From the NCBI GenBank assembly GCA_018400015.1, contig JAGYNB010000001.1, positions 264,124 to 328,123 of the forward strand: a stretch of 64,000 nucleotides of DNA. Reading direction: 5' to 3'. Of this stretch, positions 41,851 to 57,555 are shown in pieces (the first letter of the stretch is position 1; the number at the start of each line of letters is the position of its first letter). Below the pieces are notes generated by a model, which saw only the letters and a list, made by a program, of their open reading frames with translations, made no database searches and had not been told where the DNA came from. The position numbers were made by a program, and so were the translations under genes. Source of the stretch: Candidatus Omnitrophota bacterium (GTDB lineage: Bacteria; Omnitrophota; Gorgyraeia; Gygaellales; Gygaellaceae).

Positions 41851-42957
41851 GTGAAAATCTTATTTATAACAAGAGAAGGATATAAAATGGCGGGAGCCAG
41901 AATTCGTTGTTATAATTTTTCAAGAAATCTTATTGCCCGCGGCATTGATGCGCAGGTTGTGTCTTTTAAGGATGGTTTTGGCGCGTTTGACGGTGCAGAA
42001 GAATCAAAAATGACATTGAATGACAAAATAAGAGCAAATTTAAAGGTTTTAAATTATATAAGGCAGCAGAAGGACATAATCTTATTGATTCAGCGGTTTA
42101 ATTATCATTCTTTTGCACCTTTCTTGATGCATATTTTTGCAAAAACGAAAACTATTTTTGATCTTGATGATTGGGAAATGGATGAAAACCCAAGATATCA
42201 TTTTGGTTTTTATCCATCATCAAAAGCCCATTTTTTTTCAAAGGTTATCGCAAAAAGAAGTAATTTTTGTATAGGGGCCAGTAGGTTTTTGCAGGATTTT
42301 TTAAGCCTTTCAAACAAAAAAAGTTATTATCTTCCATCAGGCGTAGACACGGAAAAGTTTTATCCTGTTTATGATAATTTGAATAACCGGGAGTTTGTTT
42401 TTGCTTGGATAGGGACATTGAATAGAATGGAGTATATAGAGAATTTAGAGTCGCTTTTTCGTTGTTTTCAACAGGTAAGAAGAGTTTATCCATTTGTTTA
42501 TCTTGATATTATCGGTTCTGGTATATATGAGGTTGAATTAAAGGAAATAGTAAGGCTTATTGGAGATTCCCATATAAGGTTAAAAGGGTGGATTGATCCC
42601 GATAAGGTTAATAGTTATTTGGCATCGGTTAATGTTGCTGTTATGCCAATGGTGAGATCAAATAATTTTAATTTTTCCAAAAGCCCTGTTAAGCTTTTTG
42701 AGTATATGTCAACAGGAAAACCCGTTGTTGCAAGCAGTATAGGAGAAGCAAGCAAAATAATCCAAGACGGATCAAACGGTTTTTTGGCAAAAACAGAGAA
42801 AGAATTTACAGAAAAGATGCTTATTTTGGTCAATGACCCTGAGTTGTGTATAAAGCTGGGCAAAGAAGCTGTCAGAACAATTGAACAAAATTATTCATTA
42901 AATATCTTGGGTGATAAGTTGTATAACATGATTTTAGAGAATATACAATGTTCTTGA
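41851..42957 (+). CDS. Glycosyltransferase, family 4 (GT-B)
   Basis: 368 aa; KLFEYMSTGKPVVASSIGEA GT4 motif. Confidence 0.7.
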   Translation: MKILFITREGYKMAGARIRCYNFSRNLIARGIDAQVVSFKDGFGAFDGAEESKMTLNDKIRANLKVLNYIRQQKDIILLIQRFNYHSFAPFLMHIFAKTKTIFDLDDWEMDENPRYHFGFYPSSKAHFFSKVIAKRSNFCIGASRFLQDFLSLSNKKSYYLPSGVDTEKFYPVYDNLNNREFVFAWIGTLNRMEYIENLESLFRCFQQVRRVYPFVYLDIIGSGIYEVELKEIVRLIGDSHIRLKGWIDPDKVNSYLASVNVAVMPMVRSNNFNFSKSPVKLFEYMSTGKPVVASSIGEASKIIQDGSNGFLAKTEKEFTEKMLILVNDPELCIKLGKEAVRTIEQNYSLNILGDKLYNMILENIQCS

Positions 42958-43805
42958 GCATAGTTATTTTAACATTTAACAGCGGAGATTTTATAAAAAG
43001 ATGCCTTGATTCTTTGTTCTCTAATGTCTTAGAAGATACAGAAGTTATAGTTGTGGATAATGCTTCGACTGACAAGACAAAGGAGATTCTTAAATTATAT
43101 TCGTCTAAGTTACGATTTATCGCGAACGAAAGCAATCTTGGTTCCTGCGCAGGCAGAAATATTGCTATTGATAATTCTTCTGGTGATTGGATATTATTTT
43201 TGGACTGTGATATAGTCTTGCATAAAGATTTTATTGAGCAGATTATTCTTAAAATTAAATCTGTTTCAGGCCGGGTTGGTGCGGTTCAGCCGTTGATTCT
43301 TAAATCTGATTCAGAAACTATTTATTCTTGTGGAATTCGTCTTACTTTTCTTAGAAGGTTTTTTGATATTGGCAGGGATAAATCCGACAGAAGAAAATTT
43401 GCCTGTGAGAGAAGTATTTTTGGAGCATGTTCCGCAGCATCCGTTTATAGACGTAATATGATCGAGCAGATAAAAGATCAGTATGGTTATTTTGATGAGC
43501 GTTTTTTCTTTTTAGTAGAAGATGTAGATTTGTCGTGGCGCGCCAGAAAAAAAGGCTGGGAGACATTATTTTTTCCTGGTGCAAAATGTATCCATGCCGG
43601 CAACAGCTCATATTTTTCAAAACACTTAAGGCAGTATCTCAGTTTCCGCAATAGATACTATATGATATTAAAGAATGAAAATAAATATTTCCTTCTGCTA
43701 AAATCATTATTTTATATTTTTTACGATGTCCCCAGATTGGTTTTTTTATTATTTACTAATCCGTATATTTATCAGCGAAAGCTGAAATTATCCCAGCAGT
43801 ATTAA
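42948..43805 (+). CDS. Glycosyltransferase, family 2 (GT-A)
   Basis: 285 aa; SIVILTFNSG...VVDNASTD...LDCD DxD-type GT2 motifs. Confidence 0.75.
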   Translation: MFLSIVILTFNSGDFIKRCLDSLFSNVLEDTEVIVVDNASTDKTKEILKLYSSKLRFIANESNLGSCAGRNIAIDNSSGDWILFLDCDIVLHKDFIEQIILKIKSVSGRVGAVQPLILKSDSETIYSCGIRLTFLRRFFDIGRDKSDRRKFACERSIFGACSAASVYRRNMIEQIKDQYGYFDERFFFLVEDVDLSWRARKKGWETLFFPGAKCIHAGNSSYFSKHLRQYLSFRNRYYMILKNENKYFLLLKSLFYIFYDVPRLVFLLFTNPYIYQRKLKLSQQY

Positions 43806-43871
43806 CTTTCTTACCAGGTATGAGTTTATTCAGGGATAGCAGACTGATTATTTTTTTGCAAGTTAGAATAG

Positions 43872-44834
43872 ATGACTATAAATAAATTGATAAATAATAT
43901 GAAAATATGTTGTGTAATTGTGGCTTATAAAAATAAGCAATCATTGTTTAAATGCGTTTCTTGTGTTTTTGAACAATCGCTGGCAGTCAGCGATATAGTT
44001 ATTGTAAATAATCACGGCACGTTAGAGGATAATTTTAATTCAAGGATACCGATAACTATTATTAATAATTCAAACAATCTATTCTATGGAGTTTCGTTAA
44101 ATATTGCCATAAATAAGGTTCGGGCAGATTTTTATATTTGTTTAAATGACGACGCTTATATAGATAATAATTTTGTTAAAGAAGCAATCAAAGGGTTCGA
44201 CATTGGGGAAGATATTGGCATGGTCTGCGGTAAAGTTTTATCTTCTGATGGGATGAGAATAGATTCTGCTGGGTTATTTCTAGGATTAGCCAGGCAGCCT
44301 GTTGATAGAGGTCATCAAAAAGCCACAGCCGCAAGTTTTAATAATCAAAATTATGTTTTTGGTGTTCCCGGGGCTGTTGCTTTTTACAGAAAAACCATGT
44401 TGGATAGTGTTCGTATAGGAAGTGATTATTTTGATTCGGAGTATAAAATGTTTTATGAAGATATAGATCTGTGCTGGCGCGCCAATAGGTTAGGATGGCG
44501 TGCCTATTATGTTCCTTCGGCGCTTGCTTATCATCAAAGAGGGTTGAGTGCAAGAACTAACGATGGAGTTGGTAGAAGATTTGGCCGAAGGTTTTTAAAT
44601 AAAGAACTACATTTTGAATTGATCAAAAATAGATATCTTACGATAATAAAGAATGAAACCATTGCTGGTTTCTTAAGCCATATGTTGTTTATTATTGTTT
44701 ATGAGGCTGTTATTTGGTTGTATATTATTATTTTTAATCCTCTTATCGCCATGAATTTCATTCGGTTATTTTCGCTTAAGAAGGCTTTTAGAAAAAGGAA
44801 GCTGATAAATAATTTAGTTCTTAAAAAAAGTTAA
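43872..44834 (+). CDS. Glycosyltransferase, family 2 (GT-A)
   Basis: 320 aa; CCVIVAYKN...LNDDAY; shares GVPGAVAFYRK / EDIDLCWRA motifs with the preceding GT2 (paralogs). Confidence 0.7.
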   Translation: MTINKLINNMKICCVIVAYKNKQSLFKCVSCVFEQSLAVSDIVIVNNHGTLEDNFNSRIPITIINNSNNLFYGVSLNIAINKVRADFYICLNDDAYIDNNFVKEAIKGFDIGEDIGMVCGKVLSSDGMRIDSAGLFLGLARQPVDRGHQKATAASFNNQNYVFGVPGAVAFYRKTMLDSVRIGSDYFDSEYKMFYEDIDLCWRANRLGWRAYYVPSALAYHQRGLSARTNDGVGRRFGRRFLNKELHFELIKNRYLTIIKNETIAGFLSHMLFIIVYEAVIWLYIIIFNPLIAMNFIRLFSLKKAFRKRKLINNLVLKKS

Positions 44835-44858
44835 TTATATAATTTTATATTTAAATAC

Positions 44859-45989
44859 ATGAAGCGTATAAAAATACTTTTTATTATAACTTATCTTGAA
44901 CTTGGCGGTGCACAGAAGCAGTTGTTGTCGATATTGCAGTCGTTAGATAAAAAGCGTTATGATATTCATTTGTTTGCCGGTTCCTGCGGGTACCTTTTGG
45001 ATAAATTTAAAAATTTACAAGGCGTCACTTTAAAGCTATCTTCACATCTTAGGAGAGAAATAAGTTTATCTTGTGATCTAGCTTCCTTTCTGGAGATCTA
45101 TCATTATGTTAAGGTAAATGGATTCGATATAGTCCATTTGCACTCTCCCAAAGCTTCCTTTTTGGGGCGTTGGGCTGCATATTTAGCAGGCGCAAAAAAT
45201 ATTATATACACAGTGCATGGGTGGCCATTCCATGCTTTTATGAATCCTTTTTTGTTTTCTCTATATTGGATTATTGAGTTTAGCAGCGCCAGGATCACCA
45301 AGAAAATCATTGTAGTTTCCAAGGCAGATCTTAAGACCGGAATTACAAAATTCATAGCTGGGGAAAAAAAACTCGAGCTTATTTATTACGGTATTGATAT
45401 AGATAAATTCCATTCTATATCTTGCCATAGAAGAAATAGCTTTATAGACAATAAAACTATTATGGTCGTGTCTTCTTTTAAGAAACAAAAAGGCCTTAAT
45501 GATTTTCTGGTAGTTGTGAGTTTGCTTTTAAGGCAATTACCCGATACAAAGTTTATTCTTATTGGTAAAGGTCCTTTGTTTTCTGCTGTAAAAGATAAGT
45601 TAAAAAAAGAAAGTCTTGAAGGGTCTGTGGAGATGGTTGGCTGGCAGGAAAATATAGATATTTATTATGAAAAAGCCTCGCTATTATTATTAACATCCTT
45701 ATGGGAAGGTCTACCTGTTTGTTTGATTGAAGCGGTGGTTGCTGGTTTGCCTGTTGTATGCACTGATACAGGAGGGGTTAAGGATTTAATAAAAAATGCT
45801 GATAATGGAATAATAGTGCAGGTAAAGGATATCCTGGGCTTAAAAAATGCATGTTTAGACATGCTAGAAAACTATTCTGATTGGTATAAGAAAATAGTAA
45901 AATACAGATTTGATATTGATGTTTCTATCTGGAGCGATGATAGAATGTTAAGGCAACTGCAGGAAATTTATAGCGATATAGTTGAATAA
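44859..45989 (+). CDS. Glycosyltransferase, family 4 (GT-B)
   Basis: 376 aa; SLWEGLPVCLIEAVVAGLPVVCTDTGG GT4 motif. Confidence 0.75.
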   Translation: MKRIKILFIITYLELGGAQKQLLSILQSLDKKRYDIHLFAGSCGYLLDKFKNLQGVTLKLSSHLRREISLSCDLASFLEIYHYVKVNGFDIVHLHSPKASFLGRWAAYLAGAKNIIYTVHGWPFHAFMNPFLFSLYWIIEFSSARITKKIIVVSKADLKTGITKFIAGEKKLELIYYGIDIDKFHSISCHRRNSFIDNKTIMVVSSFKKQKGLNDFLVVVSLLLRQLPDTKFILIGKGPLFSAVKDKLKKESLEGSVEMVGWQENIDIYYEKASLLLLTSLWEGLPVCLIEAVVAGLPVVCTDTGGVKDLIKNADNGIIVQVKDILGLKNACLDMLENYSDWYKKIVKYRFDIDVSIWSDDRMLRQLQEIYSDIVE

Positions 45990-46017
45990 ATAACCTATTG
46001 TGTTAGAATAAATTACG

Positions 46018-47010
46018 ATGAAAATCGCATTATTTTTTATATTCAGTCTTGTTTTGAATGCAATATTGTTGAGTTTTGCTAATAAATTCGGTATAAAGTT
46101 TTCCTTATTCGGCAGGGAAAGGAAGATACCATTTACTGGAGGGCTAGCTATATTTTTAGGGTTTATTATATCTTTTGTTTGTATTGTTTTTTTTACTGAT
46201 TTAGTTTTTTCTTTTCAAGTCGTATGGTTCTTAGTTTTTTCTCTATTGATAATTATTGTTGAAACTGTAGATGATTTAAAGGATCTTTCTCTTAAGGCGA
46301 GGATATTTATACAGGTTTTAATAGTTTTTTTGTTTTTACTATTCTCAAAAAGGATTCAGATATATTTTCTCCCTGGTTGGTTAAATTATCTTGTTTCATT
46401 CATTTGGATAATAGGTATAACCAATGCTTTTAATCTTTTGGACATAGAAGATGGTTTATGCGGGGGAGTTAGTATTATAGTAGCAGCTTCATTATTAGTT
46501 ATTGCTTTGTTGAAAGTAGATTTGTTGATAATTTATTTGCTTTTGAGTCTGTTGCCTTCATTAATCGTATTTATATTTTTTAATTTCCCGCCAGCTAGGA
46601 TATTTATGGGCAATGCAGGAAGTCATTTCTTGGGTTTTTCTATAGCCGTTTTTTGCATTCAACAAGATTATGCCTTACCAAGCAATAAGATTTCTTTGCT
46701 GATTCCTTTTTTATTCTTAGTTGCGCCGATAATGGATACAATATATCTTGTTATCTCAAGAATAAGAAATAAAATACATCCTTTAAGAAAAAGCCCCGAT
46801 CATATATTCTTGCATCTTTTATCTAAAGGGTACTCTAAAAGGAAAATGTTGTTTTTGGTTTATTCTGTGACTTTACTTTGGTGTATGAGTGCAATAACGC
46901 TTTTTGAAGGGTTTAATTATATTTTTATCGTTTTGTTATTTCTTGCTGTTTTCTTAAGTGTGGTTGTTTATTTTATGGCTATTGGTGTAAAAGTTAATAA
47001 CAGTAGTTAA
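46018..47010 (+). CDS. wecA: Polyprenyl-phosphate HexNAc-1-phosphate transferase (WecA/MraY family), initiating glycosyltransferase
   Basis: 330 aa polytopic; ITNAFNLLDIEDGL (NAxNxxDGxDGL) signature. Confidence 0.75.
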   Translation: MKIALFFIFSLVLNAILLSFANKFGIKFSLFGRERKIPFTGGLAIFLGFIISFVCIVFFTDLVFSFQVVWFLVFSLLIIIVETVDDLKDLSLKARIFIQVLIVFLFLLFSKRIQIYFLPGWLNYLVSFIWIIGITNAFNLLDIEDGLCGGVSIIVAASLLVIALLKVDLLIIYLLLSLLPSLIVFIFFNFPPARIFMGNAGSHFLGFSIAVFCIQQDYALPSNKISLLIPFLFLVAPIMDTIYLVISRIRNKIHPLRKSPDHIFLHLLSKGYSKRKMLFLVYSVTLLWCMSAITLFEGFNYIFIVLLFLAVFLSVVVYFMAIGVKVNNSS

Positions 47011-47052
47011 TTTTTTTCGTTACAATATATACGTTATGTTAGTTAAAATAAT

Positions 47053-48321
47053 ATGGATATAAAAACTTTAAATCTTATTATATTTGTGACTGCGTATCTT
47101 TTGATTGTTTTATTTACCAAAAAAAGAACGTTTATATCTATAGTTGCCGCAATATTATTAATATTAACTGGTTGTCTTTCTTTTCAGGAAGCATTATTTT
47201 CAATAAACTGGAATGTATTGGGTATATTTGTAGGCATGCTTTTCGTTGCTGATATATTTATGGAAAGCAAAGTGCCGGCGTATCTTGCAGAAGTAATCAT
47301 AGATCGTTCTAAGAATGTCAGCTGGGCAATTCTTTTTATCTGTATTTTAAGCGGAGTCATTTCAGCATTTTTAGAAAATGTCGCAACTGTGATTATTATT
47401 GCGCCTATTGCCTTGTCTATGGCAAAAAAGCTTAATTTCAATCCTGTAAAGATGATGATAGCAATTGCTATATCGAGTAATCTTCAAGGGGCAGCGACTT
47501 TGGTGGGGGATCCTCCGAGTATGCTTTTAGGTGGTTTTGCCAAAATGAATTTTGCCCATTTCTTTTTCTATCAAGGGAAGCCCAGTATTTTCTTTGCCGT
47601 GGAGTTGGGGGCTGTGGTTTCATTTGCCGTTTTGTATTTGATTTTTAGAAACAGAAAAGAAAAACCTTTATTCTTGCCTTTAGAAAAGGTGCGTTCCTGG
47701 GTGCCTACGGTTATTCTTGGTGTATTGATTTTATTATTGGCCTTGACATCTTTTGTAGATCTTGAGTTTTCCTATATGGCGGGTATTTTATGTATGATGT
47801 TTGCTTTGGTTAGTTTAATCTACAAGAGGTTAATTGTAAAAGAAAGCATAATAAACAATTTTAAGTTTTTTGACTGGGATACATCAGTTTTTTTGGTAGC
47901 GATTTTTGTTCTTGTGGGCAGTCTTCAGGTCAATGGATGGATTGATATCATATCTTCCAAGATTTCAGGCATAATCGGCGCAAATGTACTCTTAGGTTTT
48001 ATACTCATAATATTATTTTCTATTATTTTTTCAGCTTTTATCGACAACGTACCATTTCTGGCAGCTATGCTACCTGTGGCTATAGGTATTTCTGCTAATT
48101 TGAACATAAATCCGACTTTGTTTTTATTCGCTTTGCTAATCGGTGCCAGTCTCGGCGGGAATATAACCCCGATTGGCGCATCGGCAAATATAGTAGCCTG
48201 CGGCTTGCTTAAAAAAGAGGGTTATAACGTAAGCTTTAGAGAATTTGCCTGCATAGGATTACCTTTTACCATTGCAGCGACTTTGGCTGCGTCAATATTT
48301 GTTTGGTTTATCTGGAGTTAA
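47053..48321 (+). CDS. SLC13/ArsB/NhaD-superfamily permease (paralog of 17871..19253)
   Basis: 422 aa, ~12 TM; GGNITPIGASANIVA and GAATLVGDPPSML repeat motifs. Confidence 0.6.
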   Translation: MDIKTLNLIIFVTAYLLIVLFTKKRTFISIVAAILLILTGCLSFQEALFSINWNVLGIFVGMLFVADIFMESKVPAYLAEVIIDRSKNVSWAILFICILSGVISAFLENVATVIIIAPIALSMAKKLNFNPVKMMIAIAISSNLQGAATLVGDPPSMLLGGFAKMNFAHFFFYQGKPSIFFAVELGAVVSFAVLYLIFRNRKEKPLFLPLEKVRSWVPTVILGVLILLLALTSFVDLEFSYMAGILCMMFALVSLIYKRLIVKESIINNFKFFDWDTSVFLVAIFVLVGSLQVNGWIDIISSKISGIIGANVLLGFILIILFSIIFSAFIDNVPFLAAMLPVAIGISANLNINPTLFLFALLIGASLGGNITPIGASANIVACGLLKKEGYNVSFREFACIGLPFTIAATLAASIFVWFIWS

Positions 48322-48342
48322 AAATTTAAAGTCGCTCTTGAC

Positions 48343-48367
48343 AAATGATACTAATATGGTATCATTT
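48343..48367 (+). promoter_or_regulatory. Palindromic operator candidate overlapping promoter of the rrf2-nifU-sufCBD operon
   Basis: Perfect 9-bp inverted repeat AAATGATAC-n7-GTATCATTT immediately after a TTGACA hexamer (48338-48343). Confidence 0.4.
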
Positions 48368-48486
48368 ATTAAGAGGAGGCCGATATGGATATAAACATCA
48401 GATACATGTTAAGGCCTGTAGCCCACTGTAAAGAAGGCTGCAGTATTTAGTCCTGGGCAAGACATTAAACTGCCCAGCATTTAATC

Positions 48487-48909
48487 ATGAAACTTATCAC
48501 AAGACACACGGCTTATGCGGTGGGTGCTATACTTTTTGCCGCAAAAAGCAAGCAAGATATAATTTCTGTTGAGGAATTTTATAAAGGAACCCGTATTCCA
48601 AAAGCTTTTTTAAGAAAGATCCTGCAGATTTTGAGTAAGAGGAATATATTCAGTTCTTTTAAAGGCAAACAAGGCGGTTTTCGTTTAAGGAAAAATTCGA
48701 ATCAGATATCTTTAATAGATATAGCTGATATTTTCCAAGAAGGTTTGAAGATAAACGAGTGTTTTTTCAAGAAAAAACTTTGTGATAGCGAAAAGAATTG
48801 CGCCTTAAAAAAGAAAATCGATGACATAGAAAGAATGGTTGTAAAAGAATTAGAAAGTATTACAATAGCCTCTTTATTAAATTACAATAAAAGAAGGAGA
48901 TTAAAATGA
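48487..48909 (+). CDS. Rrf2-family transcriptional regulator
   Basis: 140 aa; the [12 protein letters not shown]...[21 protein letters not shown] winged-HTH is typical of Rrf2 (IscR/SufR-like); stop overlaps the nifU-like start. Confidence 0.75.
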
Positions 48910-49127
48910 GAGAGAAAGTAGAAGCAGCTTTGAATATGATCAAACCGATATTACAGGCAGATGGAGGTAATGTTGAGCTTGTAGATGTAACAAGTGATGG
49001 AATTGTAAAAGTAAAATTAACCGGTGCCTGCGGAAGTTGCCCGATGAGTCAGATGACTTTAAAAATGGGCATAGAGCAGACCCTTAAAAAAGAAGTTCCT
49101 GAGGTTAAAGAAGTAATCTCGGTTTAA
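48906..49127 (+). CDS. NifU-like (Nfu C-terminal domain) Fe-S cluster carrier
   Basis: 73 aa; GACGSCPMS CxxC motif of the Nfu/NifU C-terminal domain. Confidence 0.7.
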
Positions 49128-49139
49128 CATGTTAATTTT

Positions 49140-49862
49140 ATGTTTTTCGAGATAAAAGACCTAACAGTTGAAGTTGAAGGTAAAACAATACTTAGAGATA
49201 TCAATCTTTCTATTGATAAAGATGAGGTTATGGTTCTTTTTGGTCCTAATGGAAGCGGGAAGACTACGCTTTTAAGGGCGATAATGGGTTTTGCTGGTTA
49301 TAAAGTAATTCAAGGTGAAATCATCTTTGAAGGCGAAAGAATAAATAATCTAACTATAGATGAGCGTGCCAGGCTTGGGTTAGGTATAATATATCAGCAC
49401 CCCGCGAGTATAAGGGGTGTAAAATTACATCAGATTGCCAGTTTTTTAACTAAAGATGATTCAAAAATAAAAGATCTCTCTCAGAGGCTGTCGCTTAGCA
49501 AGCATCTTGACAGAGACTTAAACCAGGGTTTTTCCGGAGGCGAGATGAAGCGGTCTGAGCTGTTTCAGATAATCCTGCAGGATTCTAAATTTCTCTGTCT
49601 TGACGAGCCGGAATCAGGAGTTGATATAGAAAATATTTCTATCATGGGTAAAGTTTTAGGCGAATATATTACCAAGTTAAAGAAATCCGCACTTGTAATA
49701 ACGCATACAGGATATATTCTAGATTATATAAATGCACAAAAAGGTTGTGTTATGATTGACGGGAAGCTTTGGTGTGTAGGCAATCCCAGACATATGTTTG
49801 AAAAAATCAAAGAGCTAGGCTATGAAAAGTGTAAAGACTGCCTCATCAGGAAAAGTACTTAA
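49140..49862 (+). CDS. sufC: Fe-S cluster assembly ATPase SufC
   Basis: 240 aa; Walker A GPNGSGKTTL, signature FSGGEMKRSE, Walker B LCLDEPESG. Confidence 0.85.
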   Translation: MFFEIKDLTVEVEGKTILRDINLSIDKDEVMVLFGPNGSGKTTLLRAIMGFAGYKVIQGEIIFEGERINNLTIDERARLGLGIIYQHPASIRGVKLHQIASFLTKDDSKIKDLSQRLSLSKHLDRDLNQGFSGGEMKRSELFQIILQDSKFLCLDEPESGVDIENISIMGKVLGEYITKLKKSALVITHTGYILDYINAQKGCVMIDGKLWCVGNPRHMFEKIKELGYEKCKDCLIRKST

Positions 49863-50946
49863 TACTAATCTGAAAAAGAATGATGTAGAGATTATTTCCT
49901 CTTCGGGAATGGATTTTTCTCAAGATAAACGCTCTGGGAGTTTTCTGCAATCCGATAATAAAATAGAGTTTATGAATACTTTGTATGACGGCCTTGATAT
50001 TATCGATATGGAAACCGCCCTGAAGAAAATACCTGAGGCAAAGAAATACTATGCGCGGGCTTTCAAGGAGTTAAAAAGAGATTTCCCCAAAGGCACAAAA
50101 GGCGGTTATTTTATTAGGGTAAAAAAAGGGACTGTCTTAAAGTTGCCCATACAGGCATGCCTGTTTTTAAAACAAAAAGCCTTTAAGCAAAAGGTGCATA
50201 ATTTGATAATTATTGAGGAAGGTGCAAAAGTTTATCTTATAACTGGTTGTTCCGCATCTAAAAGCGCATTTCATGCACACCATTTGGGTATATCTGAATT
50301 TTTCGTGAAAAAGGGAGCTTATTTGAATTTTACAATGATACATTCCTGGAAAGAAGATACTTTTGTGAAACCGATGAGCATTGCTATTGTAGAAGAAGAT
50401 GCTACATTTATATCAAATTACATATCTTTAAAACCTGTAAAGGAAGTTCAGATGTATCCTACGGCAGTATTAAAAGGGAAATCTGCCAGAGCGAGTTTTA
50501 ATTCTTTAATACTTTCTCATCCAGGCTCTGTCCAGGATATAGGTTCACGGGTGATATTTAAAGCTAAAAATACTCAAGCCGAGGTGATTTCCCGGGCAAT
50601 AAGCCTGGGTGGAAAGGTTATTGCCAGAGGTCATTTAAAATCAGAAGTTCCTCAAGTAAAGGCGCATCTTGAGTGCCGCGGTTTGATCTTGTCAGAAAAA
50701 GGGACTATACATGCTATTCCTGAAATGGAATCAGATTATAGAGATGTGAACATGTCTCATGAGGCAGCAATTGGAAAAATCAATAAAGAAGAGATAGAAT
50801 ATCTTTGTTCCAGGGGTTTTACGAGAAATCAAGCGCAATCAATTATAGTAAGAGGTTTTATGGATGTTGATGTTTTAGGTCTTCCTCAAGAGTTGAAGCA
50901 GGGAATAGAAGATTTAGAGAACAAAACTCTTCAGTCAAGTTTTTAG
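49822..50946 (+). CDS. SufB/SufD-family Fe-S assembly protein
   Basis: 374 aa; C-terminal beta-helix region similar to the SufBD fold (AHLECRGLILSEKGTIHAIPEME); the 41-nt overlap with sufC suggests the true start may be an internal Met. Confidence 0.65.
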   Translation: MKSVKTASSGKVLNTNLKKNDVEIISSSGMDFSQDKRSGSFLQSDNKIEFMNTLYDGLDIIDMETALKKIPEAKKYYARAFKELKRDFPKGTKGGYFIRVKKGTVLKLPIQACLFLKQKAFKQKVHNLIIIEEGAKVYLITGCSASKSAFHAHHLGISEFFVKKGAYLNFTMIHSWKEDTFVKPMSIAIVEEDATFISNYISLKPVKEVQMYPTAVLKGKSARASFNSLILSHPGSVQDIGSRVIFKAKNTQAEVISRAISLGGKVIARGHLKSEVPQVKAHLECRGLILSEKGTIHAIPEMESDYRDVNMSHEAAIGKINKEEIEYLCSRGFTRNQAQSIIVRGFMDVDVLGLPQELKQGIEDLENKTLQSSF

Positions 50947-50949
50947 AAG

Positions 50950-51660
50950 ATGAATTCTTTTAAGGCAAAATTGGTTGAAAAAATAAAGCGGACTCCCACC
51001 ATAGAGAGTTTTAGGTTTTCTATAATTGATAAACTTTCTTTTTTGCCGGGTCAGTATATTCAGGTTATGTTTGATTCGAGTAATCCTGATAATACAAAAA
51101 TAAATAAATATTTATCAATTTCCTGTTCGCCGTCAAAGGACTATATTGAAGTTACTAAAAGGTTGAGCGAGAGTGATTTCTCGTATCGTTTAAGGTCTTT
51201 GAAAGAGGCAGATGAATTAAGCTTCTCAGGTCCTTTTGGCAATTGTGTTTTTAGGCCCGAGTTTGAGAAAATAGCTTTTCTCATAGGCGGGATAGGCATT
51301 ACTCCTGTAATTTCTATGCTTGAGTATGTTGCCGAAAAAAACCTTTCTACGGATAGCATATTATTGTATTCTAATAGAAGTACAGAAGAAGCAGCCTTTA
51401 AGGATGTTTTAGATGGCTTTAGCGGGCATTCAAAGAACATAAAAACTATTTTTACCGTAAGCGAAGAAAGTGTTCAAAATCAAGATTATTTATATGGGCG
51501 GATTGATAAGACAATGGTGGAAAGCTATATGCCTGATTTTCAGCAGAGAATATTTTTTATTTTTGGGCCAGGCGCCATGGTAGAAGCCATGGTAAAGATT
51601 TTAAAAGATTTAAAAGTGCAAGAAGCCAACATAAAAAAAGAAGTCTTTATCGGCTATTAA
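50950..51660 (+). CDS. FNR-like FAD/NAD(P)-binding oxidoreductase
   Basis: 236 aa; FAD-binding barrel + NAD Rossmann (FLIGGIGITP, FIFGPGAM); no C-terminal Fe-S Cys cluster. Confidence 0.55.
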   Translation: MNSFKAKLVEKIKRTPTIESFRFSIIDKLSFLPGQYIQVMFDSSNPDNTKINKYLSISCSPSKDYIEVTKRLSESDFSYRLRSLKEADELSFSGPFGNCVFRPEFEKIAFLIGGIGITPVISMLEYVAEKNLSTDSILLYSNRSTEEAAFKDVLDGFSGHSKNIKTIFTVSEESVQNQDYLYGRIDKTMVESYMPDFQQRIFFIFGPGAMVEAMVKILKDLKVQEANIKKEVFIGY

Positions 51661-51671
51661 AAGGAGGCTTT

Positions 51672-52064
51672 ATGAAGACTATAAAAGAATTATTTAACAG
51701 CGCAGATTGGAAATTGGAAAAACATGTTCCGGTGATTGAGGTCAAAGGCAGTATTAAAAAGAGCGAGAATATAAATTTTAGTGTGAGCGTAGGAAAAGAA
51801 ATTACACATCCCAACACAACCGAACATCACATAGTTTATATGGAGGTATATTTTCTTCCTGATGCGGAGAGAAACCCGTATCTTCTTGGAAGGGTGGATT
51901 TTTCTGCGCATGGCGCATCTGTAAAAGGGCCTAATACAAGCGGTGTTTATACTGCTGCGATGATTGAATTGAGTTTTAAAACAGATTCACCCGGTACGAT
52001 TTTAGCATATAGCTACTGTAATATTCACGGGCTTTGGGACAGTTCTTACGAATTAAAGTTCTAG
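51672..52064 (+). CDS. sor: Superoxide reductase (neelaredoxin-type desulfoferrodoxin family)
   Basis: 130 aa; EKHVPVIE catalytic Glu-Lys-His motif plus His/Cys ligands (HPNTTEHH, CNIHG). Confidence 0.8.
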   Translation: MKTIKELFNSADWKLEKHVPVIEVKGSIKKSENINFSVSVGKEITHPNTTEHHIVYMEVYFLPDAERNPYLLGRVDFSAHGASVKGPNTSGVYTAAMIELSFKTDSPGTILAYSYCNIHGLWDSSYELKF

Positions 52065-52073
52065 GAGATTATT

Positions 52074-52940
52074 TTGGAAAATAAGCTTAAGCAAAAAATC
52101 ATAAATTTAGAAAATAACGAATTTACGGAATATCTTATCTACCAAAAAATTTCTAAATTAGTAAAGGATAAATCTCAATCGGAGGTTTTATCGCAGATTG
52201 CACAGGAAGAGTTAAAACACTGCGATATCTTTAAGTCTATCACTAAAGTAGAGCCAAAGCCGAAGCATTTAAAGCTGATTTTTTATGTTTTAACCGCGAG
52301 ATTATTGGGCCTTACTTTTGCTTTAAGGCTTATGGAATCCCAGGAAGGCTTAGCGCAAAGCACATATGAAAAAGTTAGTCAGATAGATTCGAGGATTGAA
52401 GAAATTATTAAAGATGAGAATAAGCATGAGAATGCACTTATTGATCTTATAAATGAAGACCGTCTTAAATATGTAAGTTCAATAGTGTTAGGTTTAAACG
52501 ATGCCTTGGTGGAATTAACCGGTGCATTGGTTGGATTTACCCTTGCGCTTCAGAATACCCGCCTTATTGCAATAGTCGGACTTATTACAGGGATAGCTGC
52601 TTCTATGTCTATGGCTGCTTCGGAATATTTATCCACAAAGCAGGAAAAGACCGACAAGAACCCCTTAAGGGCGAGTATCTATACAGGTTTTGCATATGTG
52701 TTAACGGTGTTATTTTTAGTTTTTCCGTACTTTTTATTGGAAAATGTAGTTTTATGTTTATTGTTGGTCATTTTCAATGCACTGCTGGTGATAGTTATAT
52801 TTACTTTCTATATTTCGGTTGCAAAGCAGTTATCTTTTAGAAAGCGTTTCTTAGAGATGGCTTCTATAAGCTTGACCATCGCCGGTATTAATTTTGTTAT
52901 TGGTCTAGGCATCAGAAAATTTTTCGGTATAGATATTTAA
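52074..52940 (+). CDS. Ferritin-like domain fused to VIT1/CCC1-family iron transporter
   Basis: 288 aa; N-terminal diiron-like EELKHCDIF...ENKHE helices; C-terminal 5-TM VIT1 region (GLNDALVELTGALVG). Confidence 0.65.
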   Translation: MENKLKQKIINLENNEFTEYLIYQKISKLVKDKSQSEVLSQIAQEELKHCDIFKSITKVEPKPKHLKLIFYVLTARLLGLTFALRLMESQEGLAQSTYEKVSQIDSRIEEIIKDENKHENALIDLINEDRLKYVSSIVLGLNDALVELTGALVGFTLALQNTRLIAIVGLITGIAASMSMAASEYLSTKQEKTDKNPLRASIYTGFAYVLTVLFLVFPYFLLENVVLCLLLVIFNALLVIVIFTFYISVAKQLSFRKRFLEMASISLTIAGINFVIGLGIRKFFGIDI

Positions 52941-52958
52941 TTAAACAAGGAGGATATA

Positions 52959-53135
52959 ATGGGACCTGTCGAAGCATTGAAAATAGCTCTTTCTAAGGAA
53001 GAAAGCTCCGTAGAGTTGTATACCAGACTTTCAACACAAGCGCCGGCAGCTCGTGATATTCTTCTTTTTTTAATTGAAGAAGAGCAAAAACATAAACATC
53101 TGATTGACAAAAAAATAGCAGAGTTAACAACCTAA
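52959..53135 (+). CDS. Small ferritin/rubrerythrin-like fragment protein (58 aa)
   Basis: Not in the ORF track (<60 aa). RBS aaggagg 5 nt upstream. Sequence MGPVEALKIALSKEESSVELY...LLFLIEEEQKHKHL resembles the first helix pair of ORF 54171. Confidence 0.3.
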   Translation: MGPVEALKIALSKEESSVELYTRLSTQAPAARDILLFLIEEEQKHKHLIDKKIAELTT

Positions 53136-53145
53136 AGGATAAACG

Positions 53146-53610
53146 ATGGTTAGTTTATCTATAGATGTGATCAAATTCTTCGAACGTCAGGGTTGCGTAT
53201 TGGTGGCGACTTTTTCTAGTGACGGCAGTATACATAATTCCTGTAAAGGCATTGTCAGGATTAACAAAAAAGGCGAAGTTTATATAATGGATCTTTATAA
53301 AGCAGTTACTTATAACAATCTTCAAAAAGATCATAGGATTTCCATAACGGCTTACAATGAAACTAAATTTACCGGATATAGCCTAAAGGGAAGAGCTAAA
53401 ATTCTTCCAGAAAGTGGCATAACAGCATCACTTTTAGATGATTGGAATAAAAGACTTACTTCAAGAATAGCCACAAGATTACTGGATAATATAAAAAGTA
53501 ATAATTCTTTAGCTCGACATCATGAAGCTCATTTGCCCAAGCCTAATTATTTAATTGTTATTCAGGTTGACGAAGTGGTTGATCTTGCTCCAAAAGAAGT
53601 GAAAATTTAG
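53146..53610 (+). CDS. Pyridoxamine 5'-phosphate oxidase-like FMN-binding split-barrel protein
   Basis: 154 aa; size and the GCVLVATFSSDGSIHNS pattern fit the PNPOx-like fold. Confidence 0.5.
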   Translation: MVSLSIDVIKFFERQGCVLVATFSSDGSIHNSCKGIVRINKKGEVYIMDLYKAVTYNNLQKDHRISITAYNETKFTGYSLKGRAKILPESGITASLLDDWNKRLTSRIATRLLDNIKSNNSLARHHEAHLPKPNYLIVIQVDEVVDLAPKEVKI

Positions 53611-53619
53611 AGGTGTTTT

Positions 53620-54156
53620 ATGTTTGTTTTGGCAATTAATGCAAGTCCAAGAATAAACGGAAATACGGATATATTGATTGATAAGGTATTGGAGGGGTTT
53701 ATTTCTAAAGGCTGTGATAGCGAGAAAATATATCTTGATAAACTTAACATAGCAGCTTACCGCGATGATCTGCCGCAGGATGATTTTAATAATGTTTTAG
53801 AGAAAATTAAAGCTGCTGATATTTTGATTTTGGGCTCACCGATATATTTTGGCAGCATGACAGCTCAATTAAAAACATTGATCGATCGCTTTCAAAGCGT
53901 GTGGGAAGATAAAATATTCAGAGGGTTAAATTTTTCGCACAAGAGGCAAAAGGGTATTTTTATATCCGTTCAGGGTGATAAAAAAAGCTCATATTTCGAT
54001 AATGCAAGATCTATCATTAAAAACTTTTTTGCTGTTACGGGCATAGAATATTCTAATGAATTATTTTGTACTGAGTGCGAAGATAAGCAAGACGTTTTAA
54101 ATAATAATGATTTACTGCAAGAAGCTTTTGAAATGGGGAAAGACTTTTCATTTTAA
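53620..54156 (+). CDS. Flavodoxin-like NAD(P)H-dependent FMN reductase
   Basis: 178 aa; the AINASPRINGNT...ILILGSPIYFGSMTAQLKTLIDR motif is typical of the NADPH-dependent FMN reductase / iron-sulfur-flavoprotein family (no Isf Cys cluster). Confidence 0.65.
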   Translation: MFVLAINASPRINGNTDILIDKVLEGFISKGCDSEKIYLDKLNIAAYRDDLPQDDFNNVLEKIKAADILILGSPIYFGSMTAQLKTLIDRFQSVWEDKIFRGLNFSHKRQKGIFISVQGDKKSSYFDNARSIIKNFFAVTGIEYSNELFCTECEDKQDVLNNNDLLQEAFEMGKDFSF

Positions 54157-54170
54157 TAAAGGAGAATTTT

Positions 54171-54668
54171 ATGGAAAATAAGATTTCCGGAGCGGAGTTG
54201 TTAAATATCGCTGTTAGAATTGAAAATAATGGTTATGCTTTTTATGATCAGTTTGCTAAAAAGGCTAAAGATAACGCAGTAAACGCTATGCTTATTTATT
54301 TAAGAGACGAAGAAAAGAAACACTCGGATAAATTTAGCTATATGCTAGAAGAATTGCATAAAAAAGCTGGTCAAGAAAGCCTTTATACGCAGGAATACTC
54401 TGCTTATATAAAAAGTATTGCTTCAAAGCTAGTATTTTCTCAAGAAAATACAGGTATAGAGATTGCTCAAGAAATGAAAAGCGATAAACAGGCAATTGAG
54501 AAGGCGATTGAATTTGAAAAAGATTCTATCCGTTATTATAATGCGATGAAAGAAGCGGTTTCTGAAGGAGAAAAGAACGTATTGGAAGAAGTGGTACATG
54601 AAGAAGAGGTGCATCTTGAGAAATTATCAGGTTTATTGGCAGGTTTAGAGAATGCAGGAGGTGTTTAA
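54171..54668 (+). CDS. Rubrerythrin/ferritin-like diiron protein
   Basis: 165 aa; paired E...EEKKH and EFEKDSIRYY...EEEVH helices consistent with a ferritin-like four-helix bundle. Confidence 0.55.
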   Translation: MENKISGAELLNIAVRIENNGYAFYDQFAKKAKDNAVNAMLIYLRDEEKKHSDKFSYMLEELHKKAGQESLYTQEYSAYIKSIASKLVFSQENTGIEIAQEMKSDKQAIEKAIEFEKDSIRYYNAMKEAVSEGEKNVLEEVVHEEEVHLEKLSGLLAGLENAGGV

Positions 54669-54905
54669 ATGAATAAGAATGTAATAGTGTATAGTACGCC
54701 TACATGTCCATATTGCGCGAAACTTAAAGATTTCTTAAAAGAAAATAATATTAATTTTACCGAATTTGATGTTTCTACTGATTTAACAGCAGCCCAGGAG
54801 ATGACTTCCAAGACAGGCCAGATGGGCGTGCCTGTTTTGGATATTGAGGGAGAAATTATTATTGGTTTTGATAAGGAAAAGATAAAATTCATTTTAGAAA
54901 TTTAA
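54669..54905 (+). CDS. Glutaredoxin-like protein
   Basis: 78 aa; YSTPTCPYCAKLKDFL CPYC active site; GVPVL cis-Pro region. Confidence 0.75.
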   Translation: MNKNVIVYSTPTCPYCAKLKDFLKENNINFTEFDVSTDLTAAQEMTSKTGQMGVPVLDIEGEIIIGFDKEKIKFILEI

Positions 54906-54924
54906 TAAAAAGGGAAACATAATT

Positions 54925-55869
54925 ATGCATATTTCTAAAGTTGCGGTTGTCGGTGTTGGCAGTGTAGGAAGCACGTTCGCTTATTCGCTGATGATTAGCG
55001 GCCTAGCAAGAGAAATAGTTTTAATTGACGCCAATAGGGAGCGCTTAATAGGCGAATGCATGGATTTAAACCACGGGGCGAGCTTTGTAAATCCGGTTGA
55101 TATTCATGAAGGTGATTATAAAGATTGTAAAGATGCTGATGTCGTGGTTGTTACTTTAGGAGCAAAACAAAGTCCGGGTCAGTCGCGGCTTGATTTAATA
55201 AAAACCAATGCCGGCATATTTAAAGAAGTGATTCCTAAAGTCGTAAAATATTGTAGGCAGGGGGTATTGTTGATTGTATCAAATCCCGTAGATATCCTCA
55301 CTTATCTTGCTTTGAAGATATCCGGAATCGAAAAAAATAGAGTTTTTGGTTCTGGTACAGTATTGGATAGTTCGAGGCTTAAGTATTCTATAAGTAAAAA
55401 CTGTAAAATTGATGCAAGGAATATCCATGCTTATATTATTGGAGAGCACGGTGATAGTGAATTGGTAGTATGGAGCCAGGCGAGCATTGCCGGAATGAAA
55501 ATTGCCGAATATTGTCCTAAGTGCAATAAGGCTTGTGATTATCACAAGAGGTTGAATAATATTTTTGATGAGGTTAAGAATTCCGCGTATGAGATTATTA
55601 AGCGCAAAGGCTCTACTTATTATGCCATAGGTTTATCTTTGGTTAAGATTGTGCAGGCAATAATAAGGGATGAAAATTCCATTCTGCCGGTTTCTAGTTT
55701 AATCGATGACTATTATGGGATAAAAGATGTTTGTTTTAGTCTTCCTTGCAAGGTTAACAGATCCGGAGTAGAAAAAGTTTTAAAGATAGAGTTGTCAAGT
55801 CAAGAACAGGTTCAGCTTAAAGAATCAGCGGATAAATTAAAGGGTATTATTGAATCGTTAGGTATATAA
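54925..55869 (+). CDS. ldh: L-lactate dehydrogenase (LDH/MDH family; Gln at substrate-specificity position suggests LDH)
   Basis: 314 aa; GVGSVGS NAD Rossmann; GAKQSPGQSRLDL (Q not R); IGEHGDSEL catalytic His loop. Confidence 0.75.
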   Translation: MHISKVAVVGVGSVGSTFAYSLMISGLAREIVLIDANRERLIGECMDLNHGASFVNPVDIHEGDYKDCKDADVVVVTLGAKQSPGQSRLDLIKTNAGIFKEVIPKVVKYCRQGVLLIVSNPVDILTYLALKISGIEKNRVFGSGTVLDSSRLKYSISKNCKIDARNIHAYIIGEHGDSELVVWSQASIAGMKIAEYCPKCNKACDYHKRLNNIFDEVKNSAYEIIKRKGSTYYAIGLSLVKIVQAIIRDENSILPVSSLIDDYYGIKDVCFSLPCKVNRSGVEKVLKIELSSQEQVQLKESADKLKGIIESLGI

Positions 55870-57479: not shown

Positions 57480-57490
57480 AGTTACCTCCT

Positions 57491-57555
57491 TTGACAATTG
57501 TTATGTTACTTTACGATTGACAAATGAATTATAACATATGATTTACGTTTGTCAA
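57491..57555. promoter_or_regulatory. Repeated TTGACAA half-sites / inverted repeat in the glnA-crtI divergent intergenic region
   Basis: TTGACAA at 57491-57497 and 57517-57523; inverted partner TTTGTCAA at 57548-57555 (TTGACAAA-n23-TTTGTCAA). Confidence 0.35.

Follow-up and report, generated by a model that had tools for sequence, protein, structure and literature searches.

What does the leader of an operon for iron-sulfur (Fe-S) cluster assembly carry between its promoter and the gene for its Rrf2-type regulator, and what might that leader do? We addressed this question in a 64,000-nucleotide (nt) stretch of DNA from a Candidatus Omnitrophota bacterium (contig JAGYNB010000001.1), hereafter the window, in which a sequence-only reading had noted a palindromic operator, a short upstream open reading frame (ORF) with two cysteine codons, and a hairpin in front of the rrf2 gene. 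Our comparison of this leader with related loci indicates that it holds a module made up of a conserved promoter/operator, a micro-gene that is under selection, and a covarying RNA pseudoknot. Coordinates given below are those of the window, and features lie on its plus strand unless stated otherwise.

A micro-ORF upstream of rrf2 carries a coding signature

The micro-ORF (MDINIRYMLRPVAHCKEGCSI*, 48385-48450; 21 codons, with a TAG stop at 48448-48450) has its ATG 5 nt past the Shine-Dalgarno (SD) sequence AGAGGAGG (48372-48379), which is the strongest among the gene starts of the window that we checked (42948-55869). The conserved part is a 19-residue core (48385-48441) that ends in the codons for H-C-K-E-G-C (48424-48441). 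We found the micro-ORF in 33 of 80 genome loci, these being the loci retrieved with the Rrf2 alignment, and a metagenome scan using the back-translated pattern R-P-x-x-H-C-K-E-G-C yielded at least 120 stretches, with about 117 true copies among the matches listed. Counting the window, this gives at least 150 copies, to which the core motif [YFW]-x-[LI]-R-P-[VI]-x-H-C-K-E-G-C is common; a search of 1.35 Mb of loci turned up no degenerate or diverged form of it.

The way in which these copies differ from one another is that of a coding sequence. Codon entropy in the first 34 copies was 1-1.9 bits at position 3 and approximately zero at positions 1 and 2, and the same copies contain synonymous switches between AGG and CGN for arginine and between TTA and CTN for leucine. 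Across 145 distinct core sequences, nucleotide differences were distributed over the three codon positions as 21473 : 11087 : 73612, and 72% of the codon differences were synonymous (21% expected). R10, H14, C15, E17, G18 and C19 do not vary and P11 and K16 hardly do, and an SD-like motif precedes 134 of 149 copies. These results indicate that the micro-ORF is a genuine coding gene and the first cistron of the transcript, and that the sequence of the peptide is what selection maintains. The SD-led ORF proposed by the sequence-only reading is thus borne out by the coding signature and by the SD motifs of its homologues, and the two properties on whose presence that reading had made its proposal depend, conservation and a ribosome-binding site in relatives, are both there.

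The 3' end of the micro-ORF meets a covarying RNA pseudoknot

We analyzed the region past the core by numbering columns from the first base after the Cys19 codon (column 1 = 48442) and comparing, without gaps, 97 distinct 3' elements of the style found in type A copies, the subfamily whose gene context matches that of the window (see below). As judged by covariation, the conserved structure is a compact H-type pseudoknot (48450-48477) and not a simple hairpin. Stem S1 would pair GTC (48450-48452, columns 9-11) with GAC (48461-48463, columns 20-22), the G of the stop codon being its first base in the window, and stem S2 would pair GGGCA (48455-48459, columns 14-18) with TGCCC (48471-48475, columns 30-34). 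Loops L1 and L2 are 2 nt and 1 nt long, and the 7-nt L3 (48464-48470; ATTAAAC in the window, GUUAAAC in the consensus) contains an invariant AAA.

Both stems covary. S1 was 100% paired in the 97 sequences and two of its pairs were compensated, with GC replaced by CG in four sequences (from at least two lineages) and UA by CG in two; because these compensatory changes replace residues of the encoded tail, RNA pairing is their only explanation. In S2, 94.8% of cells were paired and four pairs were compensated, with AU, GU and UA as alternatives. For the pseudoknot overall, 93.4% of cells were paired and seven of nine pairs had changes on both sides. Shuffle controls reached the observed values in 0 of 500 cases on four of five measures and in 1 of 500 on the fifth, while slid controls were 30-49% paired. 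Invariant positions comprise C11, C12, A18 and G20 together with the AAA at columns 26-28. Taken by itself, the leader RNA of the window folds no better than shuffled sequence (z = -1.32), and it is the covariation over 97 distinct sequences that makes the pseudoknot significant. The hairpin CTGGGCA-n11-TGCCCAG (48453-48459 / 48471-48477), which had been read from the window sequence and which corresponds to S2 with an extension, is therefore present and conserved, but its conserved form is the pseudoknot, in which GAC of the loop pairs with GTC just 5' of the stem; the two outermost pairs of the hairpin (columns 12-13 / 35-36) hold in the window and not generally.

In most relatives the ORF extends into the pseudoknot, to a TGA at columns 19-21 or a TAA at columns 25-27. 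The stop in the window is early by comparison, a TTG to TAG change having ended the ORF at columns 7-9. Given these differing stop positions beyond Cys19, the tail of the peptide is not under protein selection. The pseudoknot motif itself occurred 102 times in 1.35 Mb of loci, each time directly after a micro-ORF except for second tandem copies in three ferritin loci (L097 and L108, both on the minus strand, and L171 at ~1350), where a second complete pseudoknot lies ~36 nt past the first and outside any ORF. These untranslated copies suggest that the RNA element has a role beyond meeting the ribosome that translates the micro-ORF.

Several candidate activities of the pseudoknot were rejected. 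About 26% of copies are followed by a T-rich tail, whether the next gene is rrf2 or another, which does not fit a general terminator. On reading the sequence for a frameshift or read-through device we found no conserved slippery heptamer before the structure and two in-frame stops before rrf2. The CGUCUU complement of the pseudoknot's AAGACG, considered as a competitor of S1, was confined to ~8 related loci and showed no enrichment over the whole set (3.91 versus 3.86 in controls).

Other observations concern the surroundings of the element. A CGTCTT segment ~5 nt past the pseudoknot occurs in one subclade (L053, L056, L063, L113, L139 and a few others). In the window, the micro-ORF (48385) and rrf2 (48487) share a reading frame, split by TAG at 48448 and TAA at 48463; because the spacing between the two varies in relatives, we take the shared frame to be a coincidence. 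In three loci (L027 at ~2855-2960, L075 at ~2388-2505 and L190 at ~1990-2080) a GC-rich insertion of 85-150 nt separates GTCCT from CTGGGCA within the 5' part of the pseudoknot, which is re-formed after it. The insertion has the terminal inverted repeats CCGACG...CGTCGG, its core GGAGTCCCGRCCGAGCGAAAGCGA is common to L027 and L075, and it has the appearance of either a miniature mobile element or an optional RNA domain.

A palindromic operator covers the promoter of the transcript

Transcription of the module is predicted to start at ~48372, from a promoter composed of the -35 hexamer TTGACA (48338-48343) and the extended -10 element TGgTATCAT (48357-48365), with a 16-nt spacer from the -35. 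In a promoter scan this was the top match within 47800-49200, scoring 11/12 and carrying TG ahead of the second hexamer. The operator-like perfect inverted repeat AAATGATAC-n7-GTATCATTT occupies 48343-48367 (arms 48343-48351 / 48359-48367) and overlaps the -10, such that the palindrome covers both the spacer and the -10. Repeats of this kind are frequent: we counted 92 inverted repeats of 9 nt or more in the window whose arms lie within 12 nt of each other, so the palindrome alone is not beyond chance. Its significance comes instead from its retention: the -35 hexamer is part of a conserved consensus (TTGACAAATGATAC) in 71 loci, and a GATAC-n7-GTATC-type palindrome (consensus TTGACAAATGATACtAaTaTgGTATCATT) lies upstream of rrf2 in 71 of the 80 orthologous genome loci, 46 of them without and 25 with the micro-ORF. 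The 64,000-nt window contains one copy.

The palindrome is a conserved promoter/operator element of the rrf2 operon, and the TTGACA and inverted repeat of the sequence-only reading accordingly stand, at the positions given there and in 71 of 80 related loci. That reading had also offered the repeat as a candidate Rrf2-type operator, a proposal that is strengthened by the retention of the palindrome at the rrf2 promoter and by the nature of the regulator, an Rrf2 protein with three invariant cysteines, with binding itself remaining putative. The palindrome is likely the binding site of the operon's own Rrf2 repressor, which would make the operon autoregulated. In locus L022 (~2890-2990), two Rrf2-type operators stand in tandem upstream of rrf2.

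This arrangement resembles that of autoregulated promoters of the Rrf2 family (IscR, NsrR, RirA), in which a ~25-bp palindrome lies over the promoter of the gene for a three-Cys regulator; both features are found here. The NsrR motif, gATGyAT-N5-ATrCATc (PMC1274295), has the ATG...CAT half-site flavour of the window operator but differs from it in the ATG-to-CAT spacing, which is 11 nt in the NsrR motif and 15 nt in the window. NsrR regulons include hcp and other redox and nitric oxide (NO) genes, as does the regulon in relatives (hcp, flavodiiron protein).

The module occurs in three subfamilies and in diverse genomic contexts

Copies of the micro-ORF fall into types A, B and C, in which the distance from the initiating methionine to Cys19 is 19 residues (92/106 copies), 18 residues (30/31) and 20 residues (12/12), respectively. 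The type A peptide, MDITIKYMLRPVAHCKEGCSxLSWARR, has neighbouring genes that resemble those of the window and of the genome loci from Omnitrophota, and occurs mostly as the first cistron before rrf2; in the relatives, rrf2 is followed by genes for a 4Fe-4S protein, a small Cys-rich protein, hcp, an oxidoreductase and a flavodiiron protein. Other type A copies come after hcp (L054, L059, L095, L099, L112), before rubredoxin (L037, L089, L098), before ferritin (L084, L097, L108, L124, L145, L171) or before the genes for Tpx, RNR and others. The type C peptide, MARNCIRWMLRPIAHCKEGC, precedes genes for a YHS-domain protein and a DUF1573/cupredoxin-like protein. In types A and C together, a same-strand gene lies no more than 300 nt downstream in 98 of 105 copies.

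The type B peptide, MWTARFRIRPVSHCKEGC followed by PS, SI or RS, is of the Geobacteraceae type, and the SucC protein encoded beside one copy shares 87-93% identity with proteins of Geobacter, Geotalea and Desulfuromonadales. Type B units have their own TTGACA promoter and a GC hairpin that starts from the last base of the stop codon, after which most copies have an intrinsic terminator (a few are without a clear T-run there). About one third lie upstream of a gene for an HlyD-type adaptor, with ABC transporter genes next in several loci. Nine of 27 units have their next called ORF on the other strand, and these units look free-standing. When type B units were folded, the terminator was intact with or without masking of the 5' arm of the first hairpin. 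Third codon positions vary in type B as well, which argues that the peptide and not an RNA seed is conserved. Since the module is found also as a last cistron, before unrelated genes and standing alone, it is not specifically a leader of rrf2-suf operons.

Two further features were observed in subsets of loci. A conserved partial palindrome resembling ATCCTGTTAGGAAT lies between the TTGACA promoter and the SD sequence in L094, L117, L165, L175, L192 and L193, which are type B units upstream of HlyD-type genes; it suggests a different, dedicated regulator for them. Copies of a MWTSRFRIRPVSHCKEGCSI subtype (L102/L110, L111/L126, L127, L138, L144, L151, L160, L177, L196) have a near-identical 5' untranslated region and ORF in at least seven different neighbourhoods, with four of the contigs coming from metagenome Ga0209123, a distribution that hints at several copies per genome.

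The family matches nothing in current databases

Searches of Pfam and NCBIfam with four variants of the peptide, and a profile search of the PDB with the micro-ORF peptide, gave no match at E values up to 10. The 57-residue read-through translation matched 2 of 5.8 billion called proteins. For the RNA, a search of the whole window against Rfam 15 (which includes preQ1-I and ykkC-III) returned nothing relevant at gathering score; at E values up to 10, the region 48200-48600 gave only two noise matches (E of at least 3). In 18 type B and C loci there were only tRNAs and an unrelated c-di-GMP-I riboswitch. This riboswitch (44.8 bits; 3354-3430 of L144) lies ~2 kb from a type B micro-ORF. In the literature searched we found no paper on the peptide motif and, among work on Omnitrophota and Rrf2, nothing on this element. 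We also approached cultured Geobacter and Geotalea through sucC synteny, and the motif was not found within 6 kb of sucC in L201-L206. The micro-ORF family thus appears to be undescribed, and by its distribution it belongs to Omnitrophota and to Geobacteraceae/Desulfuromonadales, that is, to at least two phyla.

RNA structures begin at a common distance from the last conserved codon

The three subfamilies have unrelated structures past the micro-ORF, namely a pseudoknot, a GC hairpin and a terminator hairpin, and their stop codons fall anywhere from 0 to 8 codons past Cys19. The start of the structure is nevertheless shared, lying ~5-9 nt (mostly 7-9 nt) past the Cys19 codon in types A, B and C. 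With Cys19 in the ribosomal P site, the structure would begin at about +8 to +12. Positions +8 to +12 from the P-site codon are in the region of the ribosome's mRNA entrance. The geometry is a lead, from only three independent designs and short of proof, that a ribosome carrying the finished core interplays with the RNA structure.

The distance from the structure to the next gene is far less constrained. Between the pseudoknot and the ATG of rrf2 it ranges from 8 to 278 nt, and 47 of 61 rrf2 genes have their own SD sequence. All five loci with a distance of 8-14 nt are without one, while 47 of the 56 other loci have it. In a consensus fold of 37 loci, covering the interval between the pseudoknot and the start of rrf2, only the S2 hairpin was conserved and nothing that involves the SD. 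The pseudoknot therefore does not appear to sequester the SD sequence of rrf2.

A functional micropeptide and its alternatives

We propose the following explanation for the module. Transcription would begin at a sigma-70-type promoter whose spacer and -10 are covered by the palindrome, and would be repressed there by the Fe-S-type Rrf2 protein of the same operon. The first cistron would be translated into a micropeptide that is itself the functional product; with its histidine and two cysteines it would most likely be a thiol- or metal-binding peptide, working by metal or thiol-redox chemistry, and it would be made alongside genes for redox, NO, metal and Fe-S stress. A ribosome with the finished core in its tunnel would meet the RNA structure at the mRNA entrance, and on terminating would have to melt the pseudoknot. 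In the window, where the ATG of rrf2 lies 9 nt past the pseudoknot with no room for an SD sequence, unwinding and re-initiation would link the translation of rrf2 to that of the micro-ORF, and synthesis of Rrf2 would on this ground probably be coupled to it. The finding that the ORF can be a first cistron, a last cistron or a free-standing unit favours a functional micropeptide, and we put the chance that the peptide acts in trans, through the kind of chemistry suggested here, at about even. Coupling of rrf2 to the micro-ORF in the window seems to us plausible, if a little short of an even chance.

A number of points weigh against this proposal. The case for a function in trans is argued from context, and we found no partner protein with which the micro-ORF is strictly co-inherited (Hcp, 21/33 with the micro-ORF versus 15/47 without it); nor does the peptide match any known metal site, family or structure. 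The same-strand genes that closely follow nearly all type A and C copies would fit a leader acting in cis as well, and a fixed distance from codon to structure, kept across three unrelated structures, fits a ribosome-centred cis mechanism more naturally. The additional role implied for the RNA element lies outside our explanation; the element might serve as a binding site, perhaps one recognized by the peptide itself, or act as a stability element. As to coupling, an SD-like motif is likewise missing from 8 of the 18 other gene starts that we checked in the window (among them those of three glycosyltransferase-like genes, a CitMHS transporter, sufC, sufB and an oxidoreductase), which weakens the argument from the missing SD of rrf2, and the 36 nt between the stop codon of the micro-ORF and the rrf2 ATG make a long distance for re-initiation.

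Some of these points would be accommodated by a sensor in cis of the arrest-peptide type, in the manner of TnaC, SpeFL, SecM, ErmCL or CutF. In such a sensor the core in the exit tunnel and the RNA structure together would pause or arrest the ribosome, with Cys19 on the P-site tRNA, and the arrested or terminating ribosome would act on the downstream structure and so control the next gene, the arrest being set by a small ligand or by the redox state of H-C-x3-C. In its favour, the conservation is of amino acids and not of nucleotides and is concentrated in the 10-13 residues before the presumed pause site, while the N-terminus and the tail of 0-8 residues vary freely; the shared start of three unrelated structures just past the last conserved codon and the proximity of type A and C copies to a following gene point the same way. 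In several type C copies, moreover, the stop comes right after the Cys and a true terminator follows 4-5 nt later, such that a ribosome waiting at the stop would by itself keep the terminator from acting. Set against this, known arrest motifs (RAPP, PPP and the TnaC-like W/D/P pattern) are to our knowledge absent from the peptide. Type B units followed by an ORF on the opposite strand, with a terminator that survives masking, have nothing to regulate in cis, and some copies are terminal cistrons after hcp, with the next gene apparently having its own promoter (seen at one locus, L054). The rrf2 SD is not sequestered, the spacing to it varies widely and a free SD is the rule for rrf2 genes; most copies of the pseudoknot are not terminators; and in three loci a second pseudoknot lies outside any ORF. 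A precedent exists in the copper-sensing upstream ORF that combines CxxxC with a stem-loop (PMC9973294). On balance we regard an arrest-type sensor as unlikely, though a serious contender. A more specific form of the idea is that the His/Cys2 site of the nascent 19-residue chain detects a metal ion or an oxidant or NO within the exit tunnel, the ribosome pausing against the structure and thereby setting the expression of stress genes, which would constitute a new class of ribosome-based sensor in Omnitrophota and Geobacteraceae; in a variant, the loaded free peptide would bind its own pseudoknot or hairpin as a peptide-RNA switch. We consider this form, with its variant, rather unlikely.

The sequence-only reading had itself suggested an attenuation-like device that senses through the two Cys codons. 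In its classical form, scarce Cys-tRNA would slow decoding of these codons, refold the leader and release expression of suf, and an SD-led ORF with two Cys codons and a hairpin, upstream of an Fe-S assembly operon that consumes cysteine, is what one would look for. The Cys codons are however embedded in the invariant H-C-K-E-G-C, whose neighbouring residues (R, P, H, K, E, G) are conserved equally, and instead of a run of Cys codons there are two that are split by three invariant residues. There is no plus-strand intrinsic terminator in 47800-49200, and folding of the window revealed none of the alternative terminator/antiterminator pairings that had been envisaged; masking of the type B hairpin never disturbs the terminator. 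Most copies also precede genes unrelated to the use of cysteine (hcp, ferritin, rubredoxin, an efflux pump). Conservation of the whole core, the missing terminator and the missing alternative pairing thus speak against the suggestion, and we hold Cys attenuation to be very improbable. A different possibility is that the pseudoknot is the regulator, as a ligand aptamer or as a site for a protein or peptide that controls downstream stability or translation, with the micro-ORF separate or auxiliary; its architecture, as we take it, recalls preQ1-I, and the iron-responsive element of ferritin would presumably be a functional analogy. Strong conservation of the loops, covariation of both helices, tandem duplication of the pseudoknot alone before ferritin genes and its preservation despite large insertions that split it are all in keeping with such a role. 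Yet the element was never seen in the 1.35 Mb of loci without a micro-ORF immediately upstream, its distance to the downstream start is unconstrained, it has no Rfam match even at the most permissive threshold, and the other subfamilies have plain GC hairpins in its place, which cannot be aptamers; we judge this explanation improbable. That the ORF and hairpin are accidents of an AT-rich intergenic region might be argued from the unremarkable fold of the window leader and from the frequency of similar inverted repeats in the window, but the coding signature of at least 150 conserved copies, together with the covariation of the structure, led us to reject this, and we assign it a negligible probability.

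Comparison with known leader peptides and small RNAs

The CutF/CruR class (CutF of Rhodobacter cutFOG; the Bordetella cruR class) shares with the present module a CxxxC in a small upstream ORF, followed by an mRNA stem-loop and situated before genes for metal or redox homeostasis (PMC9973294). CutF has a mature part of 90 residues, a Sec signal peptide and a proline-rich C-terminal stalling-like motif; it senses copper in the periplasm, and the sequence of the peptide, not just its translation, is required (PMC9973294). The 21-residue window peptide with its 19-residue core differs from CutF (PMC9973294) in having a single proline and no signal peptide, hydrophobic N-region or proline-rich tail, the pseudoknot leaves the downstream SD uncovered, and the ORF also stands alone. 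By analogy, this class appears to be the nearest functional counterpart, sharing only the CxxxC and the adjacent stem-loop.

Likeness to other systems is more general. The TnaC, SpeFL, ErmCL, SecM and MifM leaders are likewise short SD-led ORFs with conserved amino acids and a downstream RNA element. In those leaders, the state of the RNA element depends on the position of the ribosome. Their motifs are all absent here, we were unable to show a rut site, an antiterminator or an SD-sequestering helix, and the family is not restricted to a leader position. Leader-peptide attenuators of the trp, his and leu operons and the polycysteine small-ORF attenuators of mycobacteria place a tiny ORF with the relevant codons upstream of a related operon. 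The window resembles them in its short SD-led ORF with relevant codons but lacks a codon run and a terminator/antiterminator pair, and it is the whole peptide that is conserved.

The precursors of ribosomally synthesized and post-translationally modified peptides (RiPPs), such as pqqA, and the dual-function small RNAs SgrS/SgrT and RNAIII combine a very short, highly expressed ORF with a structure, sometimes as an independent short transcript. A very short ORF followed by a structure, sometimes independent, is found here as well, but there is no conserved maturase or partner gene, and third codon positions are free, leaving no RNA seed in the ORF. Compact H-type pseudoknots with an A-rich third loop are known from the preQ1-I aptamer and from luteovirus frameshift signals. 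The pseudoknot described here is like them in its short S1, in a hairpin loop that pairs with the 3' tail, in a 7-nt A-rich L3 and in its length of ~27 nt, and is unlike them in having no Rfam match and no upstream slippery heptamer and in being embedded in the 3' end of an ORF. From these comparisons, the module would best be filed as a variant of the 'conserved small ORF plus RNA structure' kind that lies outside every described family.

The Rrf2 regulator and the genes downstream

The rrf2 gene (48487-48909, 140 codons) begins 9 nt past the pseudoknot. The N-terminal sequence MKLITR of its product and the cysteines C92, C99 and C105 are invariant in 27 Rrf2 homologues, and the conservation of MKLITR argues that the start at 48487 is right. 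The protein contains an Rrf2 domain (PF02082, E = 1.3e-25) and, by its sequence, would be a winged-helix Rrf2 protein of the Fe-S type, with the three cysteines as cluster ligands. Its nearest homologue, from Candidatus Gygaella obscura, is 72% identical, and most named matches are from Omnitrophota. In NCBIfam, only the cut-off of the Rrf2 superfamily was passed, with the product far below every cut-off of the IscR, NsrR, RirA and SUF-regulator equivalog models. The operator fits the general Rrf2 pattern and no named subfamily.

Judging from orientation and spacing, the genes at 48906-55869 on the plus strand are presumed to belong to the same operon. They encode an Nfu-type NifU-domain protein, SufC, a SufB/D-like protein, an FAD/NAD oxidoreductase, a desulfoferrodoxin-family protein, a VIT1-rubrerythrin fusion, a PNPOx-like protein, an FMN reductase and a rubrerythrin-like protein, followed by two products that we take, from their translations only, to be glutaredoxin-like and lactate/malate dehydrogenase-like. 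Beyond them, on the minus strand (55944-57497), is a glutamine-synthetase-like ORF of 517 residues whose translation is extended at the N-terminus by ~60 residues that resemble a DNA-binding helix-turn-helix.

Implications

For annotation, the consequence is that the first gene of this operon is not rrf2. A peptide of ~19 residues with an RNA structure of its own, invariant across at least two phyla, has been missed entirely by annotation. It heads operons for Fe-S assembly, detoxification of NO and O2, iron storage and metal handling. Omnitrophota is a phylum without cultured members. Geobacteraceae include cultured species, and direct genetic tests should therefore be possible there. Whichever of the readings proves right, a missing component would be added to Rrf2-type stress regulons, and the module would offer a concrete and well-delimited system in which to learn how very small ORFs and adjacent RNA structures cooperate.

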